The notes beneath the pieces were generated by a model that saw only the letters and a list, made by a program, of their open reading frames with translations, did not search any database and was not told where the DNA came from. DNA of 64,000 bases from an uncultured Chloroflexia bacterium (lineage in GTDB: Bacteria; Chloroflexota; Limnocylindria; Limnocylindrales; CSP1-4). Position numbers and translations under genes: made by a program. Of the stretch, positions 1 to 6,290 are shown piece after piece (positions within the stretch are counted from its first letter, which is position 1; every line of letters starts with the position of its first letter). The DNA lies in the NCBI GenBank assembly GCA_963763775.1, contig CAVXPZ010000004.1:416001-480000 (forward strand), given 5' to 3'.

Positions 1-454
1 CGATGCGCTCCGCCTCGCCGAGCGCGTGGAGCTCGTCGCGCAACATCCCGTCGGAACCCGGGATCGTGGGCAGACCGTACCCGCCGAGGAGGCGCCGCGT
101 GCCCTCCTTGCTGGCGAAGCGCTCGAGGACCCCGGCCGAAGGCCCGATGAAGGTCATCCCGTGGGCCGTGACGACCTCCGCGAACCCCTCGTCCTCGGAG
201 AGGAAGCCGTACCCGGGGTGGATCGCGTCGCAGCCGGTCACCAACGCGGCCGAGATGACCGCCGGCGCCGAGAGATAGGAGCGCTTCGCGTCGGCCGGGC
301 CGATGCAGATGGCCTCGTCGGCGAGCAGCACCGGCAGCGAGTCGCGGTCGGCCTCGCTGTAGGCGACGACCGCCTCGATGCCGAGCGTCCGGCACGCCCG
401 CAGGATGCGCAGGGCGATCTCGCCGCGGTTGGCGATGAGGATCTTGCGGAACAC
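1..454 (-). CDS. accC: Acetyl-CoA carboxylase biotin carboxylase subunit, N-terminal part (runs off window start)
   Basis: Manual translation from GTG at 454: MFRKILIANRGEIALRILRACRTLG...AIHPGYGFLSEDEGFA...FIGPS. Not in the ORF track because it has no stop inside the window. Confidence 0.95.
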   Translation of the reverse strand, partial: MFRKILIANRGEIALRILRACRTLGIEAVVAYSEADRDSLPVLLADEAICIGPADAKRSYLSAPAVISAALVTGCDAIHPGYGFLSEDEGFAEVVTAHGMTFIGPSAGVLERFASKEGTRRLLGGYGLPTIPGSDGMLRDELHALGEAERI

Positions 455-456
455 GC

Positions 457-1065
457 TCAGGCGTCCCCGGCCGGCGACAGCGCCAGCTCGATGACGACGA
501 GCTCCTGCCCGTATTCGACCGCGTCGCCCGGCTCGGCGAGGCTCGACCCCACCACGCCATCGGTGGGGGCGACGACCTCTTGGGCGACCCCGAGCATGTC
601 GACCACGCCGAGGCGGTCACCGGCCCGCACCGATGTCCCCTGGCGAGCCTCGGTACGTGGCTGGTAGATGCCGACAGCCGGCGAGGTGGCCACGACCCGC
701 CGGGGATCGGCGCCGGCGTGGCCGTCGCGACCCGAGTGTCCGTCGCGGCCGTCTCGGCCGTCCCGGCCTGGCCCGACGGGCGTGAGGCCGGCGCCCGGGT
801 GCGAGGCGTGCCCGGACGACCCTCGACCGGCGCGCTCGGTGGATCGCCGTGTCTGGTCCGGATTCGCGGCGACGCCGGGGCGGCGCAGGCGGACCTTCCA
901 GCCGCCTTCGCGCACTTCGAGCTCGCCGAGCCCGGTCGCCGCGAGCTTCACGATCAGGGCTGGCAGCAGCTCGGTCGCGAGTCGGTCGATGGCGGCGTGG
1001 TCGGCGGATCGCTCCGTGGCGCCTCGGGCGGGCCGGCGCGATCCCTGCGGCGTCGAGTCGGGCAC
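457..1065 (-). CDS. Biotin carboxyl carrier protein homolog (AccB-like) lacking the biotinyl-lysine
   Basis: AccB-type N-terminus (TGLGELEVREGGWKVRLRR), a linker, and a biotinyl/lipoyl fold (SPAVG...GDRLGVVDMLGVAQEVVAPTDGVV...GDAVEYGQEL). GTG at 1065 with AGGAGG upstream. Lies between accDA and accC. Confidence 0.85.
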   Translation of the reverse strand: MPDSTPQGSRRPARGATERSADHAAIDRLATELLPALIVKLAATGLGELEVREGGWKVRLRRPGVAANPDQTRRSTERAGRGSSGHASHPGAGLTPVGPGRDGRDGRDGHSGRDGHAGADPRRVVATSPAVGIYQPRTEARQGTSVRAGDRLGVVDMLGVAQEVVAPTDGVVGSSLAEPGDAVEYGQELVVIELALSPAGDA

Positions 1066-1069
1066 GCGC

Positions 1070-3031
1070 TTACACCTCCTCCCGAGCGGGCGGTTCGTCG
1101 CGTGACCACGACGGGACCGAGCCACTCAACCCCCGGCGGCCCGGATCCAGCAGGTCGCGCAGGCGGTCCCCGAGCCCGCGACCGGCCGGCAGGACCATCT
1201 CCGGCAGTTCGGCCTCAGTGTAGGACCCCAGCGCCCGGTAGCGTCGGTAGCGCTGCTCGACGAGGTCGTCGACGGTGAGGGCCGATAGCGCCTCGAGCCG
1301 GTCGAGGATGATCGGCCGGAGCCGACGCGCGGTCTCGGCCGGGTCCGTGTGGGCGCCTTCGCCGGGCTCCGCCACCACGATGTCGACGACGCCGAGCTCG
1401 CGCTGCTCGGCCGCCGTCATGCGCATGGCTGCGGCCGCGGTGTGCGCCTCGTCGGCGGTCCGCCACAGGATCGAGGCGCAGCCCTCCGGACTGATCACCG
1501 AGTAGACCGCGTTCTCCAGGGCGATGACGACGTCGCCGACCGCGATGGCGAGCGCGCCGCCCGAACCGCCCTCGCCGGTGATGATCGCGACGATCGGGGT
1601 GCGCAGGCGCGTCATCAGCGCCACCGACCGCGCGATGGCCTCCGCGATGCCGCGTTCCTCGGACTCCGGGCCCGGATGGGCGCCGGGGACGTCCACGAAC
1701 GTGACGACCGGGAGGCCGAACCGCTCGGCCAGCTCCATGATCCGCATCGCCTTGCGATAGCCCTCGGGATGCGGCATCCCGAAGTTGCGCCGGATGTTCT
1801 CGTCGGTGTCCGCGCCCTTCTGCTGGCCGATGACGACGATGGGACGGCCCTCGAGCCTGGCGAGCCCCGCGACCATCGCCTCGTCGTCGCCGAACAGCCG
1901 GTCGCCGTGGAGCTCGACGAAGTCGTCGGTCATCGCCCGCACGAACTCGAGCGTCCGCGGCCGATGCAGGTTCCGTGCGAGCTGGACCCGCGCCCAGACC
2001 TCGTCGGTCGCGGCGGTCGTCGCGGCCGCGGCGGTCGTCGTCCCGTTCGTCTCGGCGGGGTCGGCCGTGGACCCACCCTCCGCATCGGTGGCGGTCTCGC
2101 CGCCCGCGAGCTCGCTCACGCGGTCGGCGAGCGTCGAGAGGAACGAGAACGGCCGAAAGCCGGCCACCTCGCCGTTCGCGGTCGGCGTCGCGGGCGTCGC
2201 GTCCCGCGTCGGCAGCAGGCGGAGCAGACCGGCCAGCTCGTCGTGGAGCTCGGGCCGTGCGACCACGCGGTCGACGAAACCGTGGCTGAAGAGGAATTCG
2301 GCGCGCTGGAACCCGGGCGGCAGCTCCTGGGCGATCGTACCCGCCGAGACCCGTGCACCCGCGAACCCGATCAGGGCGTTCGGCTCGGCGACATTGACGT
2401 CTCCGACGGCCGCGAACGACGCGAAGACGCCACCCGTCGTCGGGTCCGACAGGATCGAGACGAACGGCACGCCGGCGCCGCGAAGCCGCTCGATGGCCGC
2501 GAGGGTCTTGGCGAGCTGCATGAGCGCCAGCGTGCCCTCCTGCATCCGGGCTCCGCCCGAGGCGCTCACGACGATGAGCGGGATCCGCTCGGCAAGGGCG
2601 TGCTCGGCCGCGCGCGTGACCTTCTCCCCGACCACGGCGCCCATCGAGCCGCCCATGAAGCCGAAGTCCATGACGCAGATCGCCACCGCGGTCCCGCCGA
2701 TGACGCCCGTGCCCCACAGGGCGGCGTCGCGCATGCCGGTCGCGGTCTGCGCCGCGCTCAGTCGGTCCGGATACGCCTTCTGGTCGACGAACCCGAGCGC
2801 GTCCACGGACTGGAGGCCGGCGTCGTGTTCGGCCCAGGTCCCCTCGTCGAGCAACTGCTCCAGGCGGGCCGCCGCGGAGAGCCGGAAGTGGTGCCCGCAC
2901 GTCGGGCAGACGCGCAGGGCCTTCTCGAGCTGCTTGTTGAACAGCATCGTCTCGCACGACGGGCACTTGGTCCACAGGTCCGCCGGGTAGGCGTCCTTGC
3001 GGGCCCGGAACGTCGGCAGCTTGAGCGGCAT
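1070..3031 (-). CDS. accDA: Fused acetyl-CoA carboxylase carboxyltransferase beta+alpha subunits (AccD-AccA)
   Basis: N-terminal CPSC..CPTC zinc finger, GGSMG and GGARMQEG (AccD); acidic Ala/Thr linker; FGMPHPEGYRKA, GEGGSGGALA and YSVISPEGCASILW (AccA). ATG overlaps the upstream stop (TGATG). Confidence 0.95.
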   Translation of the reverse strand: MPLKLPTFRARKDAYPADLWTKCPSCETMLFNKQLEKALRVCPTCGHHFRLSAAARLEQLLDEGTWAEHDAGLQSVDALGFVDQKAYPDRLSAAQTATGMRDAALWGTGVIGGTAVAICVMDFGFMGGSMGAVVGEKVTRAAEHALAERIPLIVVSASGGARMQEGTLALMQLAKTLAAIERLRGAGVPFVSILSDPTTGGVFASFAAVGDVNVAEPNALIGFAGARVSAGTIAQELPPGFQRAEFLFSHGFVDRVVARPELHDELAGLLRLLPTRDATPATPTANGEVAGFRPFSFLSTLADRVSELAGGETATDAEGGSTADPAETNGTTTAAAATTAATDEVWARVQLARNLHRPRTLEFVRAMTDDFVELHGDRLFGDDEAMVAGLARLEGRPIVVIGQQKGADTDENIRRNFGMPHPEGYRKAMRIMELAERFGLPVVTFVDVPGAHPGPESEERGIAEAIARSVALMTRLRTPIVAIITGEGGSGGALAIAVGDVVIALENAVYSVISPEGCASILWRTADEAHTAAAAMRMTAAEQRELGVVDIVVAEPGEGAHTDPAETARRLRPIILDRLEALSALTVDDLVEQRYRRYRALGSYTEAELPEMVLPAGRGLGDRLRDLLDPGRRGLSGSVPSWSRDEPPAREEV

Positions 3032-3549
3032 CAGGCGAGCCTCGTCCGGGCGACCGCGCGGATCGCGCGGGCCATCGGAGTGGACGCCTCGTGACGCAGC
3101 CGCCACGCGACGAACGCCGCGCCGGCGAGCGAGAGGGCCGCGGACGTCAAGGCACCACCGATCAGCAGTGGCCGGACGTGGTCCGCATCGTCGTCGAGCG
3201 AGGCGCCGCCGAGGTAGGCCGCGAGCTCGGCGTCGGCGAGGGGGTCCAGCACGGCTCGCGGCATCGGGACGACCATGCCCCCGCCGCCGGCCGCCGGAGC
3301 CAGGCGACGGGCGAGCGCCGCCGCGGTCAGGCGCGCCGAGAGGGCTTCCTCGAAGCGGAACGACGGGTGGAGCCGCGGCAGGCTCCGCGAGAGCCGCTCG
3401 GCCACGGCGCGGACGCCCGGGTCCAGGTCGACGGGAGCGGGGGCCAGGTCAGCGCCGAGCGCGTGGGCGGCGAGCAGGGACTCGAGGTATCGGTCGGTGA
3501 CCAGCGCGTCGATCTCGGCACCGTCCCGGTTCCCCGGGCTCGGGGTCAC
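3031..3549 (-). CDS. Single-pass membrane protein, putative anti-sigma factor
   Basis: 172 aa with a C-terminal hydrophobic helix (LLIGGALTSAALSLAGAAFVAW). Overlaps the ECF sigma stop. PSFRFEEALSARL resembles anti-sigma N-terminal segments. Confidence 0.55.
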   Translation of the reverse strand: MTPSPGNRDGAEIDALVTDRYLESLLAAHALGADLAPAPVDLDPGVRAVAERLSRSLPRLHPSFRFEEALSARLTAAALARRLAPAAGGGGMVVPMPRAVLDPLADAELAAYLGGASLDDDADHVRPLLIGGALTSAALSLAGAAFVAWRLRHEASTPMARAIRAVARTRLA

Positions 3550-4175
3550 CCGTCCCGTCCGTCGAGGTCGCGCGCGACGCTTCGCAGCGCCCGGTGGATG
3601 AGGACCCGGACAGCCCCCTCCGAGCGCCCGAGCACACCGGCGATCTCGGCGGTCGACATCTCGTCGACGAATCGCAGCACCAGAGCTCGGCGCCGGTCGC
3701 CGGTCAGGCGCCCGATGGCCCCAAGCGCGGCCCGCGCCTCGTCGCGGCGGGCCGCGTCGAGGGCGATGTCGAGCGGGGCGACGAGTTCCGCGGCGGCGTC
3801 GAGCGGGGTCTCCGGCCGGCGGCGGCTGGCACGACGTCGCTCGGCGACGACGTTCCGGGCGATCTGGAAGAGCCAGACCCGGAAGGTCGAGGCCCCGTCG
3901 CCGTCCTCGGGCCGCGCTCGCTCCTCGAACCTCGAGAGGTGGGTGAGCGCGGCCAGGAACGTCCGCTCGGTGGCGTCCTCCGCGTCGTGTCGATCGCGCA
4001 GCTCGTACGCGGCGTAGCTATACACCTGGGCGACGTACTTCCGATACAGGGCCTCGAACCGTGCCGGGTCGGCCTGGGCCGCCTCCACGAGCGGACGATC
4101 CCGATCGAGGTGGACGACGCGCCGGTCCCCGACCTCCTCCGGTCGGCCTACCTTCCTGAATGCCGGACGGGCCAT
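3546..4175 (-). CDS. ECF sigma-70 family RNA polymerase sigma factor
   Basis: Region 2 (DAEDATERTFLAAL, FRVWLFQIARN) and region 4 (MSTAEIAGVLGRSEGAVRVLIHRAL). Confidence 0.93.
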   Translation of the reverse strand: MARPAFRKVGRPEEVGDRRVVHLDRDRPLVEAAQADPARFEALYRKYVAQVYSYAAYELRDRHDAEDATERTFLAALTHLSRFEERARPEDGDGASTFRVWLFQIARNVVAERRRASRRRPETPLDAAAELVAPLDIALDAARRDEARAALGAIGRLTGDRRRALVLRFVDEMSTAEIAGVLGRSEGAVRVLIHRALRSVARDLDGRDG

Positions 4176-4179
4176 CGCG

Positions 4180-5028
4180 TTACACCCCGTCCGCGATCGG
4201 GTCCGGCGAGACATCGGTCAGGCGGACATGGCGGATCTCGCCGACGACGACCTGCCGCTCGCCCTCGGGCGTCGCCGGGTCCGCCACGACCAGGGCGCCG
4301 GTCAGCGAGTCGACGCCGAGCGCGCGGTGGTCGGCCGAGACGCCGTCCGGTCCCTCGATCCGCACGCTGCGGCCGGTGGTGAGCTGGCGGTCGGTCCAGT
4401 CGGCGACGTCGAAGCGGCCGCCCCGCAGGGCCTCGATGCGAGCTTCGAGGCGACCGGTGAACGCCTCGTGCAACGCGATCGCGTCGATCGGTCGGCCGTG
4501 CGAGGCCTCGCGCAGCGACGTCATCGTGTCGGCGAGTCCCGGCGGGAAGTCCGCGGCCGCCCAGTCGGCGTTCAGGCCGATCCCGACCACGACCCGCGGA
4601 TCGTCGGAACCGAGGCCGGACGTCTCGCCGAGGACGCCCGCCACCTTGCGCATCCCGCCCGCGGCGGGCGATCCGTCCTCGACGACGAGGTCGTTCGGCC
4701 ACTTGAGACGGATCATGCGGTCCGGGAGTCCGGCGACCTCCTCGGCGGCGTCCGCCATGGCCAGCGAGGCCGTGGCCGCAAGCCGCCAGACGCGGTCCGG
4801 CTCCAGCCACGTCGGACGGAACCCCAGCGAGAGCAGGTACGCGGCCCCCGCCGGCGCGATCCAGCGCCGGCCGTCCCGGCCACGACCGGCACGCTGCTCG
4901 TCGGCGACGGCGAGGCAGACCTCCGGCGTGCCGTCGGCGAGCCAGTCGCGGACGACGTCGTTGGTCGAGCCGACGACGTCGAAACGCTCGGCGCGGGCCA
5001 GGAACGGGGTCGAGGGCGTCGCCCGCAT
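4180..5028 (-). CDS. birA: Biotin--[acetyl-CoA carboxylase] ligase (no N-terminal HTH)
   Basis: STN, QRAGRGRDGRRW, KWPND, KVAGVL and GIGLN motifs. Confidence 0.95.
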   Translation of the reverse strand: MRATPSTPFLARAERFDVVGSTNDVVRDWLADGTPEVCLAVADEQRAGRGRDGRRWIAPAGAAYLLSLGFRPTWLEPDRVWRLAATASLAMADAAEEVAGLPDRMIRLKWPNDLVVEDGSPAAGGMRKVAGVLGETSGLGSDDPRVVVGIGLNADWAAADFPPGLADTMTSLREASHGRPIDAIALHEAFTGRLEARIEALRGGRFDVADWTDRQLTTGRSVRIEGPDGVSADHRALGVDSLTGALVVADPATPEGERQVVVGEIRHVRLTDVSPDPIADGV

Positions 5029-6290
5029 CAGCCGGCGGCGGCCACGTCGACGGCTTCGGGGCGCTCGAGCTCGAAGGCGTCGTGGAGGGCGCGCAGCGCC
5101 GTCTCGAGCTCGTCCTCGGCGACGATGCAGGTGATCCGGACCTCCGAGGTGGAGATCATCTCGATGTTCACGCCCGCGTCCGCGAGCGTCCCGAACATCC
5201 GCGCCGCGTATCCCGGGGCGTTGTGCAGCCCCGCGCCGACGATCGAGACCTTGCCGACCGAGGCGTCGGTGGTGAGCTCGCGGGCACCGAGCTCGCGGAC
5301 GATCGGGTCGAGGACCTTCTTGCCGCGGGCCAGCTCGGCGCGCGGGACGGTGAACGACATGTCGGTCGCGCCGCCGTGGCCGACGTTCTGGACGATCATG
5401 TCGATGTTGACGCCGGCCTCGGCGAGCGGTTCGAAGATGGCCTTGGCGACGCCGGGTCGGTCGGGGACGTCGACGATCGTGACCTTCGCGACGTTCCGAT
5501 CGTGGGCGAGGCCGCGGACCTTGTTGCGCTGCTCCACGAGCGGGTCCTCCCTGATGAGCGTGCCGGGGGCGTCCTCGAACGAACTGAGGACCTCGATGAC
5601 GACGTCGTTGACCCAGCCGAGCTCGACGGCCCGGACCTGCATGACCTGGGCGCCCTGGTGGGCGAGCTCGAGCATCTCCTCGTAGCCGATGACGGGGAGC
5701 TGGCGCGCCTTCGGGACGAGCCGCGGGTCCGCGGTGTAGATGCCGCGGACGTCGGTGAAGATCTGGCAGCGGTCGGCCCCGAGCGCGGCGGCGAGGGCGA
5801 CGGCGGTGGTGTCGCTGCCGCCGCGGCCCAGGGTGGTGATCTCGCTCTGACCGACCGCCGCGGCACTCCGGCCCTGGAAGCCGGCCACGATGACGACCTT
5901 GCCGGCCTCGATCTCCTGTCGCACGCGGCTCGGCTGGATGTCCGCGATGCGGGCCTTGCCGTACCGACCGTCGGTGGTGATGCCCGCCTGCGGCCCGGTC
6001 AGGCTGATCGCCGCGACGCCCTGCGCGTGCAGCGCCATCGAGAGCAGCGTCGCGGACTGGTGCTCGCCGGTCGCGAGCAGGACGTCGAGTTCGCGCGGGT
6101 CCGGGTCATCGGTGACGGCGGCGGCCAGCCCGAGCAGCTCGTCCGTCGTGTCGCCCATCGCGGAGACCACGACGACGAGGTCGTTGCCGGCCGCGCGCTC
6201 ACGCGCGATCCGCCGAGCCACCCGCTTGATGCGGTCGGCGTCGGCCACGGACGAGCCGCCGTATTTCTGGACGACGAGGGGGGCAGGCAT
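5028..6290 (-). CDS. lysC: Aspartate kinase
   Basis: [34 protein letters not shown] and two ACT domains. Confidence 0.97.

Follow-up and report, generated by a model that had tools for sequence, protein, structure and literature searches.

We analyze a 64,000-nucleotide stretch of DNA from an uncultured Chloroflexia bacterium (assembly GCA_963763775.1, contig CAVXPZ010000004.1, positions 416,001 to 480,000; hereafter "the window") and describe a gene, accB', that encodes a paralog of AccB, which serves acetyl-CoA carboxylase (ACC) as its biotin carboxyl carrier protein (BCCP). Judged by its sequence and that of its relatives, accB' encodes a functional pseudo-carrier, i.e., an AccB paralog that is not biotinylatable at the canonical site and is under purifying selection. 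We consider it somewhat better than an even bet that the protein is a non-catalytic subunit resembling the BADC proteins of plants, which would bind the biotin carboxylase (BC) AccC, alone or mixed with AccB, and organize or tune the BC-BCCP half of the enzyme, by activating or restraining it. A first-pass annotation of the same DNA had proposed a BADC-like regulator or scaffold of ACC. That proposal survives in a sharper form, as a selected, non-biotinylatable AccB paralog that has a separate true carrier beside it and is coupled to accDA and accC, with the regulatory or scaffolding role kept conditional.

In the accessible portions of the literature, non-biotinylatable look-alikes of BCCP (BADC) are treated as a feature of the plastid ACCase of plants and algae, and whether they act as inhibitors or in assembly is still argued. 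A bacterial counterpart, if conserved, in synteny with ACC genes and found in cultivable relatives, would show that the solution has evolved more than once, and would offer a simpler system in which to study how a biotin-free carrier shapes BC-BCCP assembly. There is also a practical side, as mis-annotation of such proteins can lead metabolic reconstruction astray and distort the number of biotin-dependent proteins that is counted.

Results

The accB' protein has lost the biotinyl-lysine and the thumb

The accB' gene lies at 457-1065 of the window on the minus strand, with a GTG start at 1065-1063 and a TGA stop at 459-457, and encodes 202 amino acids (aa); it is defined by its open reading frame (ORF) and translation, by a Pfam match and by its orthologs. 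The protein has three parts: an AccB-type N-terminal segment, a low-complexity linker and a C-terminal biotinyl-like domain. The biotinyl motif of this domain reads GDRLGVVDMLGVAQEV. According to the sequence and the alignments, the position of the biotinyl-lysine is taken by Gly159, encoded by GGG at 589-591 (minus strand) just as the first-pass annotation had it, and Leu158 replaces the Met of AMK. Where the canonical AccB of the same genome has LIEAMKLFNEI, accB' has VVDMLGVAQEV, so that Met has become Leu and the biotinyl-Lys has become Gly; in place of the (A/V)MK(M/L) hairpin in which AccB/BCCP proteins hold the biotin-accepting lysine, there is DMLG. The C-terminal domain (residues 124-194) holds no other Lys either, which agrees with the annotation, and the sole two Lys residues of the protein, K40 and K57, are in the N-terminal segment. 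The accB' protein is therefore unable to accept biotin at the canonical site, and no other conserved lysine is on offer.

The biotinyl-like domain (residues 124-194; 484-696, minus strand), delimited by Pfam and column statistics, has a shortened thumb and ends in a conserved G[DE]AVEYGQ. Its membership in the beta-sandwich family rests on a match to Pfam Biotin_lipoyl (PF00364) of 24.1 bits over residues 138-192, against a cut-off of 22.1. On the NCBIfam BCCP equivalog TIGR00531, the accB' protein reaches 34.1 bits, far from the cut-off of 115.2; the canonical AccB of the genome, at 103.1 bits, likewise falls below that cut-off. A profile built from 26 orthologs aligns with residues 29-176 of E. 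coli BCCP, up to its C-terminal end (4hr7_B, E 7.6e-18), with L-G opposite M-K and gaps of 2 + 4 residues in the thumb. Against the genome's own AccB, the thumb of accB' is 6 residues shorter, and the shortening that the annotation had suspected is thus seen in both comparisons. In terms of AccB membership, the protein has the N-terminal segment and the flexible linker, and it lacks the ACC-type thumb loop.

The N-terminal segment (residues 26-63; 877-990, minus strand) is recognized by its invariant residues and by the alignment with E. coli BCCP. It consists of a helix and an ELEV..G..RVRLRR hairpin motif and includes LLPALIVKLAATGLGELEVREGGWKVRLRRP; the start of the profile alignment at residue 29 of E. 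coli BCCP bears out the claim that an AccB-type segment is kept. Ten of its residues (L33, P35, L37, L41, T44, L46, E48, E50, R59 and R61) are invariant among the 26 orthologs. In the C-terminal domain, G132, G143, L158, G159, E184 and G186 are invariant and Q187 is nearly so. Between the two lies a linker rich in Arg, Asp, Gly and Pro (residues 64-123; 697-876, minus strand), whose variable length appears as gaps in the alignment. Within it, a short RDG-type repeat, GRDGRDGRDGHSGRDGHAG, is found at 700-770 (minus strand), and the length of the linker differs among orthologs.

The gene is conserved under purifying selection

Orthologs of accB' were found in 22 of 24 genomes of the same genus and in all 16 genomes (1.0-1.4 Mb) of a second family; the two same-genus genomes that gave no match have completeness values of 69% and 59%. 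The motif [DE][MV]LG is present in 30/30 aligned rows (our sequence and 29 loci from two families), and AMK occurs in none of these close relatives. To look further afield, a profile search was run over 1.84 billion cluster representatives (50%-identity clusters), of which the best 150 matches, all with E<=1e-30, were used. Every one of the 147 representatives that cover the site has L-G there, and the remaining three end short of it. No Lys is present in the domain in 122/150 of these best matches, and no alignment column has Lys in more than 8/150.

We computed pairwise ratios of nonsynonymous to synonymous substitution rates (dN/dS) for 19 same-genus accB' orthologs, keeping those pairs whose dS falls within 0.05-1.0 (127 of 171), and for canonical AccB (166 of 190 pairs). 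The median dN/dS of accB' is 0.15 in the N-terminal segment, 0.21 in the domain and 0.50 in the linker; canonical AccB in the same genomes has 0.15, 0.09 and 0.52, respectively. The N-terminal segment is hence as constrained in accB' as it is in the true carrier. We reject a miscall or a pseudogene because L-G is invariant in all aligned relatives that cover the site, the frames are intact (with conserved start and Shine-Dalgarno sequence in 19/19 complete same-genus orthologs) and dN/dS in both structured parts is well below 1. The annotation's assertion of an intact gene, in which no single miscall explains the missing lysine, holds on all of these counts.

The gene is wedged between accDA and accC

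A Shine-Dalgarno sequence, GGGAGGAGG, lies at 1075-1083 (minus strand), 9 nt 5' of the GTG, where it falls within the final codons of accDA. That the gene has such a signal of its own, as had been noted, is a conserved property, and GAGGAGG precedes the start in 19/19 complete same-genus orthologs. The accDA stop codon is TAA at 1072-1070, and in the same 19 orthologs the accB' start follows that stop by a few bases. On the other side, the GTG of accC (454-452) is only 2 nt past the accB' stop codon, the gaps to accDA and accC being 2-5 nt. If read from GTG 1125, the frame is longer and runs into accDA, and this GTG is not the start that is conserved. The gene is tightly coupled in translation to accDA and accC, which suggests that the protein is made in step with both.

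Among 80 related public loci, accDA is upstream of accB' in 76 and accC downstream in 78, the rest ending at contig edges; accB follows in 56 and birA is upstream in 30. The order accDA-accB'-accC-fabZ-phosphoesterase-fabF-accB-fabH is the same in these loci wherever the contig reaches. The records of the relatives are mostly titled Candidatus Limnocylindria, Limnocylindrales or Chloroflexota. Six of the 80 loci (L060, L070, L071, L085, L112 and L115), which have the full Limnocylindria-type order, are in metagenome-assembled genome records titled Methylomirabilota, Patescibacteria, Verrucomicrobiia, Saccharimonadales and Deferrimicrobiaceae; these are probably mis-binned or mislabelled contigs, and we do not count them as spread.

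The genome encodes a separate, canonical carrier

The whole assembly (3.3 Mb, 71% G+C, 87% complete) was scanned with Pfam PF00364. Six matches were obtained: a canonical AccB, two BC-BCCP fusion carboxylases, the lipoyl domain of an E2 subunit, a weak match in rpoC, and accB' itself. The canonical AccB, which has IEAMKL and a thumb, is at G000:C4:411849-412508, on the same strand and 4.5 kb downstream of accB', next to fabF and fabH. The first-pass annotation had surmised that the true biotin carrier is encoded elsewhere; this search for EAMK carriers locates it, and adds the two fusion carboxylases, which carry EAMK domains of their own. The notion that the genome is without a true carrier was rejected on the same scan. 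In the relatives, canonical AccB co-occurs with accB' in 38/40, with IEAMKL in 30/30 loci inspected. Two of the features that characterize the BADC-like kind, namely a selected BCCP homolog without the biotinyl-lysine and a canonical BCCP coexisting in the genome, are found here.

Lysine-less AccB homologs are spread across Chloroflexota

We searched 401 Chloroflexota genomes with the lysine-less profile (this tally and that obtained with a canonical AccB query include G184 and G309, flagged as unpublished). All sampled families of Limnocylindria match: 23/23 genomes in family f1, 4/4 in f2, 16/16 in f3 and 2/2 in f4. The Limnocylindria loci examined have the arrangement accDA-accB'-(gap)-accC. 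The width of the gap varies, with 1 to 3.5 kb between the lysine-less gene and accC at L206, L207, L209 and L210 (families f3 and f4) and near-abutting genes in the family of the window.

Outside Limnocylindria, the best-scoring AccB-like gene sits in the interval from efp to xseA and in many cases follows a gene for a pepP-like peptidase. The 60 non-Limnocylindria genomes considered are the top scorers to the lysine-less profile, a sample biased toward the lysine-less type; within it, 44/60 are without the lysine (G in 15, N in 17, R in 7, A in 2, and Q, E and M in 1 each) and 16 keep EAMK. The preceding Met is nearly always Leu in the lysine-less homologs. A second, canonical AccB with thumb and [AT]MK is encoded elsewhere in 25/25 of the lysine-less genomes checked, and at the 20 second loci inspected it adjoins accC in 9 and fabH in 8. 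One genome with a lysine-less efp-linked gene, G303, has two separate canonical AccB loci with nearly equal scores. In ten genomes whose efp/xseA-linked gene keeps the lysine, that same gene is the best match to a canonical AccB query, and the full match lists of three of these ten contain no further canonical gene of AccB size.

A protein in records naming Thermogemmatispora tikiterensis shares 98% identity with one lysine-less group, and others are named Dictyobacter or Ktedonobacteraceae. The proteins from records that name cultured Ktedonobacteria (P0272-P0391) have Asn at the site of the biotinyl-lysine, with [EQ][SA]LN in 120/120 matches listed, and their NCBI name is "acetyl-CoA carboxylase biotin carboxyl carrier protein". 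For the proteins of Limnocylindria, the names in use are "biotin/lipoyl-containing protein", "acetyl-CoA carboxylase biotin carboxyl carrier protein" and "hypothetical". The naming of lysine-less proteins as carriers is likely a systematic mis-annotation.

Origin of accB'

In the genome under study, efp is followed directly by xseA with ~ 70 bp between them (G000:C1:659621-661519, outside the window), and no accB-like gene is present there. Since this slot is empty, the gene between accDA and accC looks relocated. The first-pass annotation had placed accB' in "the accB slot"; we reverse this description, since the lysine-less gene of other Chloroflexota sits in an efp-accB-xseA locus that is vacant here.

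Trees were built from the N-terminal segment and the domain (102-105 columns, the four motif columns having been removed beforehand) with a quick search, and their resolution is low. The second tree omitted near-copies, i.e., 40/62 lysine-less and 23/30 canonical rows of Limnocylindria. The lysine-less proteins of Limnocylindria form one side of a branch (SH-aLRT 95-98) and have the VDVLG proteins of family f21, which are efp-linked, as their nearest neighbours (branch support 81). Canonical AccBs that are linked to fabH or accC form a group, with a support of 74-92 depending on the tree. The free trees require 2-3 changes of lysine state; a constrained tree with all 48 K-bearing rows on one side is not rejected and has a slightly higher likelihood (p-AU 0.596). 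These trees are compatible with a single ancient loss of the lysine as well as with several losses.

We infer that accB' most likely derives from an efp-linked accB that is ancestral in Chloroflexota. The old efp-linked copy would have lost its lysine and yet stayed, in lineages that hold a second, canonical accB, and in Limnocylindria it would have moved between accDA and accC.

Other genes of the cluster

Along the minus strand, the cluster runs birA, a sigma factor of the extracytoplasmic function (ECF) type, a 172-aa ORF, accDA, accB', accC, a FabA/FabZ-like dehydratase, a metallophosphoesterase, a FabF-type ketoacyl synthase, accB and fabH, and several of the junctions overlap or almost touch. 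This is in line with the earlier description of a gene between accDA and accC in a birA operon. The birA gene, the ECF sigma factor and a putative anti-sigma gene lie upstream on the same strand and have overlapping ends. The accDA gene (1070-3031, minus strand; Pfam Zn_ribbon_ACC, Carboxyl_trans and ACCA) encodes a fused carboxyltransferase beta-alpha; its likely start is the ATG at 3031-3029, which overlaps the stop of the 172-aa ORF as TGATG, although the listed ORF extends to a GTG at 3106. Only the 5' part of accC, the BC gene, is in the window (2-454, minus strand; Pfam Biotin_carb_N), as the gene runs off the window start; its full product has 456 aa (L007:11084-12454) and also matches CPSase_L_D2 and Biotin_carb_C.

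The 172-aa ORF (3031-3549, minus strand) matches no Pfam family and is conserved in position in related loci; it takes the anti-sigma place, and any name for it comes from that position. Beyond it are the ECF-type sigma factor (3546-4214, minus strand; Pfam Sigma70_r2 and Sigma70_r4_2) and birA, which encodes a biotin-protein ligase of 282 aa (4180-5028, minus strand; Pfam BPL_LplA_LipB). The sigma factor and the 172-aa ORF (3031-4214, minus strand), with overlapping ends between birA and accDA, are conserved in most of the 80 loci, and it is unusual to find a sigma/anti-sigma pair among clustered biotin ligase and ACC genes. Just below the window start, at L007:8499-10980 (G000:C4), the dehydratase, the metallophosphoesterase and the FabF-type synthase lie between accC and the canonical accB. 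The FabF frame was detected by third-position G+C periodicity only, a plain ORF listing having hidden it within a longer frame. A scan of window positions 1-5400 for sigma-70 promoters and terminators gave 0 promoter-like and 1 terminator-like site (inside accDA), no more than in shuffles, and is therefore uninformative on the operon. Among the sequencing runs listed none was of RNA, and the 24 DNA runs contained only 5-8% of the words sampled.

Discussion

A BADC-like subunit of ACC as the favored reading

The mechanism that we favor starts from what the protein can no longer do and what it retains. The biotinyl-lysine is gone, with AMK turned into L-G, and so is the thumb that cradles biotin; the N-terminal segment and the residues that define the fold of the biotinyl domain are kept by purifying selection. 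The N-terminal hairpin segment, perhaps together with the surface of the domain, may then dock onto AccC, alone or mixed with AccB, and a protein so docked would be a non-catalytic subunit that organizes or tunes the BC-BCCP half of ACC. Its effect could be activation, as an assembly "glue", or restraint, by competing for BC.

Several observations weigh against this reading. The accB' domain changes at about twice the rate of its counterpart in canonical AccB (0.21 vs 0.09), though it is clearly constrained. Outside Limnocylindria, the lysine-less gene has its links with efp and xseA and with no ACC gene, so that its context is silent on ACC. The residue that replaces Lys varies widely in the phylum, which fits a rule of "anything but Lys" and gives no pointer to a new specific function. 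Finally, the hairpin of the Chloroflexus BC-BCCP fusion (see below) is of another sequence type than the AccB-type N-terminus.

A bolder extension, which we put forward tentatively and rate as rather unlikely, is that the ACC of much of Chloroflexota is a five-part enzyme, in which a biotin-free pseudo-carrier derived from the efp-linked AccB would be an obligatory organizer of the BC oligomer and the second AccB would do the carrying. If true, bacteria would have arrived at the BADC principle on a path independent of plants, and Thermogemmatispora and Dictyobacter, as cultured Ktedonobacteria, would provide a simple system for the question of activation versus inhibition.

Other explanations

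The strongest competitor, to which we would give limited credence, is in fact a sub-case of the favored reading with its sign fixed: accB' could be a pure decoy or negative regulator that competes with holo-AccB on BC or on the carboxyltransferase and lowers ACC flux. This was the original model for plant BADC, which accessible accounts describe as a competitor of BCCP for BC (PMC10440990, PMC13585458), and both parts of AccB that could fill the carrier sites are indeed kept in accB'. However, a decoy translationally coupled to accDA and accC would be made along with the very enzyme to be inhibited; the gene is also fixed in every Limnocylindria genome giving a match, and so resembles a constitutive subunit more than a conditional brake. 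The later BADC work, as far as its available text goes, favors an assembly role (PMC11926652).

A different partner enzyme is less probable still. The protein could serve one of the BC-BCCP fusion acyl-CoA carboxylases of the genome, or act on a carboxyltransferase in the manner of the small epsilon subunit that serves actinobacterial carboxylases. The genome does encode two more alpha subunits of carboxylases, each with an EAMK domain, and the gene is unlinked to ACC genes outside Limnocylindria; the accessible part of PMC11926652 mentions that bacterial acyl-CoA carboxylases can have non-catalytic "glue" subunits. Set against these points are the place of the Limnocylindria gene, wedged between accDA (76/80 loci) and accC (78/80), and the AccB-like character of the protein over its whole length.

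It is quite improbable that accB' is an expression autoregulator, whose N-terminal segment controls acc/fab transcription or translation while the lysine-less domain is a passive stabilizer. The idea has a precedent in E. coli, where AccB autoregulates accBC through its N-terminal domain (PMC3896788, seen in part), and the N-terminal segment is the most constrained part of accB' (dN/dS 0.15). But the C-terminal domain, which this explanation reduces to a passive role, is constrained too (0.21) and has its own six invariant residues, and the Pfam and NCBIfam scans of the protein revealed no nucleic-acid-binding motif.

We hold it to be very improbable that accB' still serves as a carrier, by way of a different modified residue or a different cofactor, as nothing but the fold speaks for it, the thumb that accompanies biotin is deleted and most of the best 150 representatives have no domain Lys at all. 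Least credible is the view that accB' is a dead copy of accB in decay, or that a miscalled codon makes it a sequencing artefact, for which one could cite the NCBIfam BCCP score far under the cut-off and the faster evolution of the domain relative to canonical AccB, were it not for the intact frames with start and Shine-Dalgarno sequence, the invariant L-G, the low dN/dS and a synteny preserved across a class.

Comparison with known systems

Full-text literature searches for bacterial lysine-less BCCPs or BADC-like cases found plant and algal work only, although studies of subunit evolution may treat prokaryotes; the available text of the Chloroflexus ACC paper (PMC11077971) does not mention lysine-less paralogs. 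The novelty of a bacterial lysine-less BCCP homolog is accordingly provisional.

Canonical AccB/BCCP (E. coli AccB, PDB 4HR7/1BDO; TIGR00531) has the same architecture as accB', i.e., an N-terminal segment that interacts with BC, a flexible linker and a C-terminal biotinyl domain. In E. coli, BC and BCCP are reported to form a subcomplex (PMC3896788). Unlike the canonical protein, accB' has L-G for AMK, a lysine-free domain, a thumb shorter by 6 residues and an equivalog score of 34 bits against a cut-off of 115.

The same phylum offers for comparison the BC1 fusion of Chloroflexus aurantiacus (PMC11077971), in which, according to the portions available, the N-terminal hairpin of BCCP organizes BC dimers into tetramers. 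Four such hairpins form a barrel that joins the BC dimers, and it is the hairpin and not the core that gives the more active BC tetramer, the biotinyl core being unneeded (PMC11077971). Unlike accB', the BC1 domain forms a single protein with BC and has its biotin on Lys553 (PMC11077971). Because the hairpin sequence types differ, transfer of the mechanism from BC1 is an analogy. Of the five BC residues named in the accessible part of that paper as hairpin contacts, the product of accC keeps two identical (Tyr32 and Arg37) and one conservatively replaced, a comparison that is weakly informative.

The plant and algal BADC (BLP) proteins of the heteromeric plastid ACCase are like accB' in being BCCP homologs without the biotinylation motif that are encoded beside true BCCPs. 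According to the first-pass annotation, they show a motif of the E/D-Q-L/F-G type. As far as the accessible text of four papers goes, plant BADCs have no biotinylation motif and bind both BC and BCCP (PMC11926652, PMC10440990, PMC12706156, PMC13585458), and they are reported to modulate or assemble ACCase, with an inhibitory role described as well as one of assembly "glue" (PMC11926652, PMC10440990). In contrast to the plastid proteins, accB' is bacterial and is part of an acc/fab gene cluster, and its binding is a prediction where that of BADC is reported. We present the likeness as one of function by analogy rather than as a shown descent. As accB' lies among Chloroflexota AccB sequences in our trees, which are without BADC sequences, an origin independent of BADC is likely.

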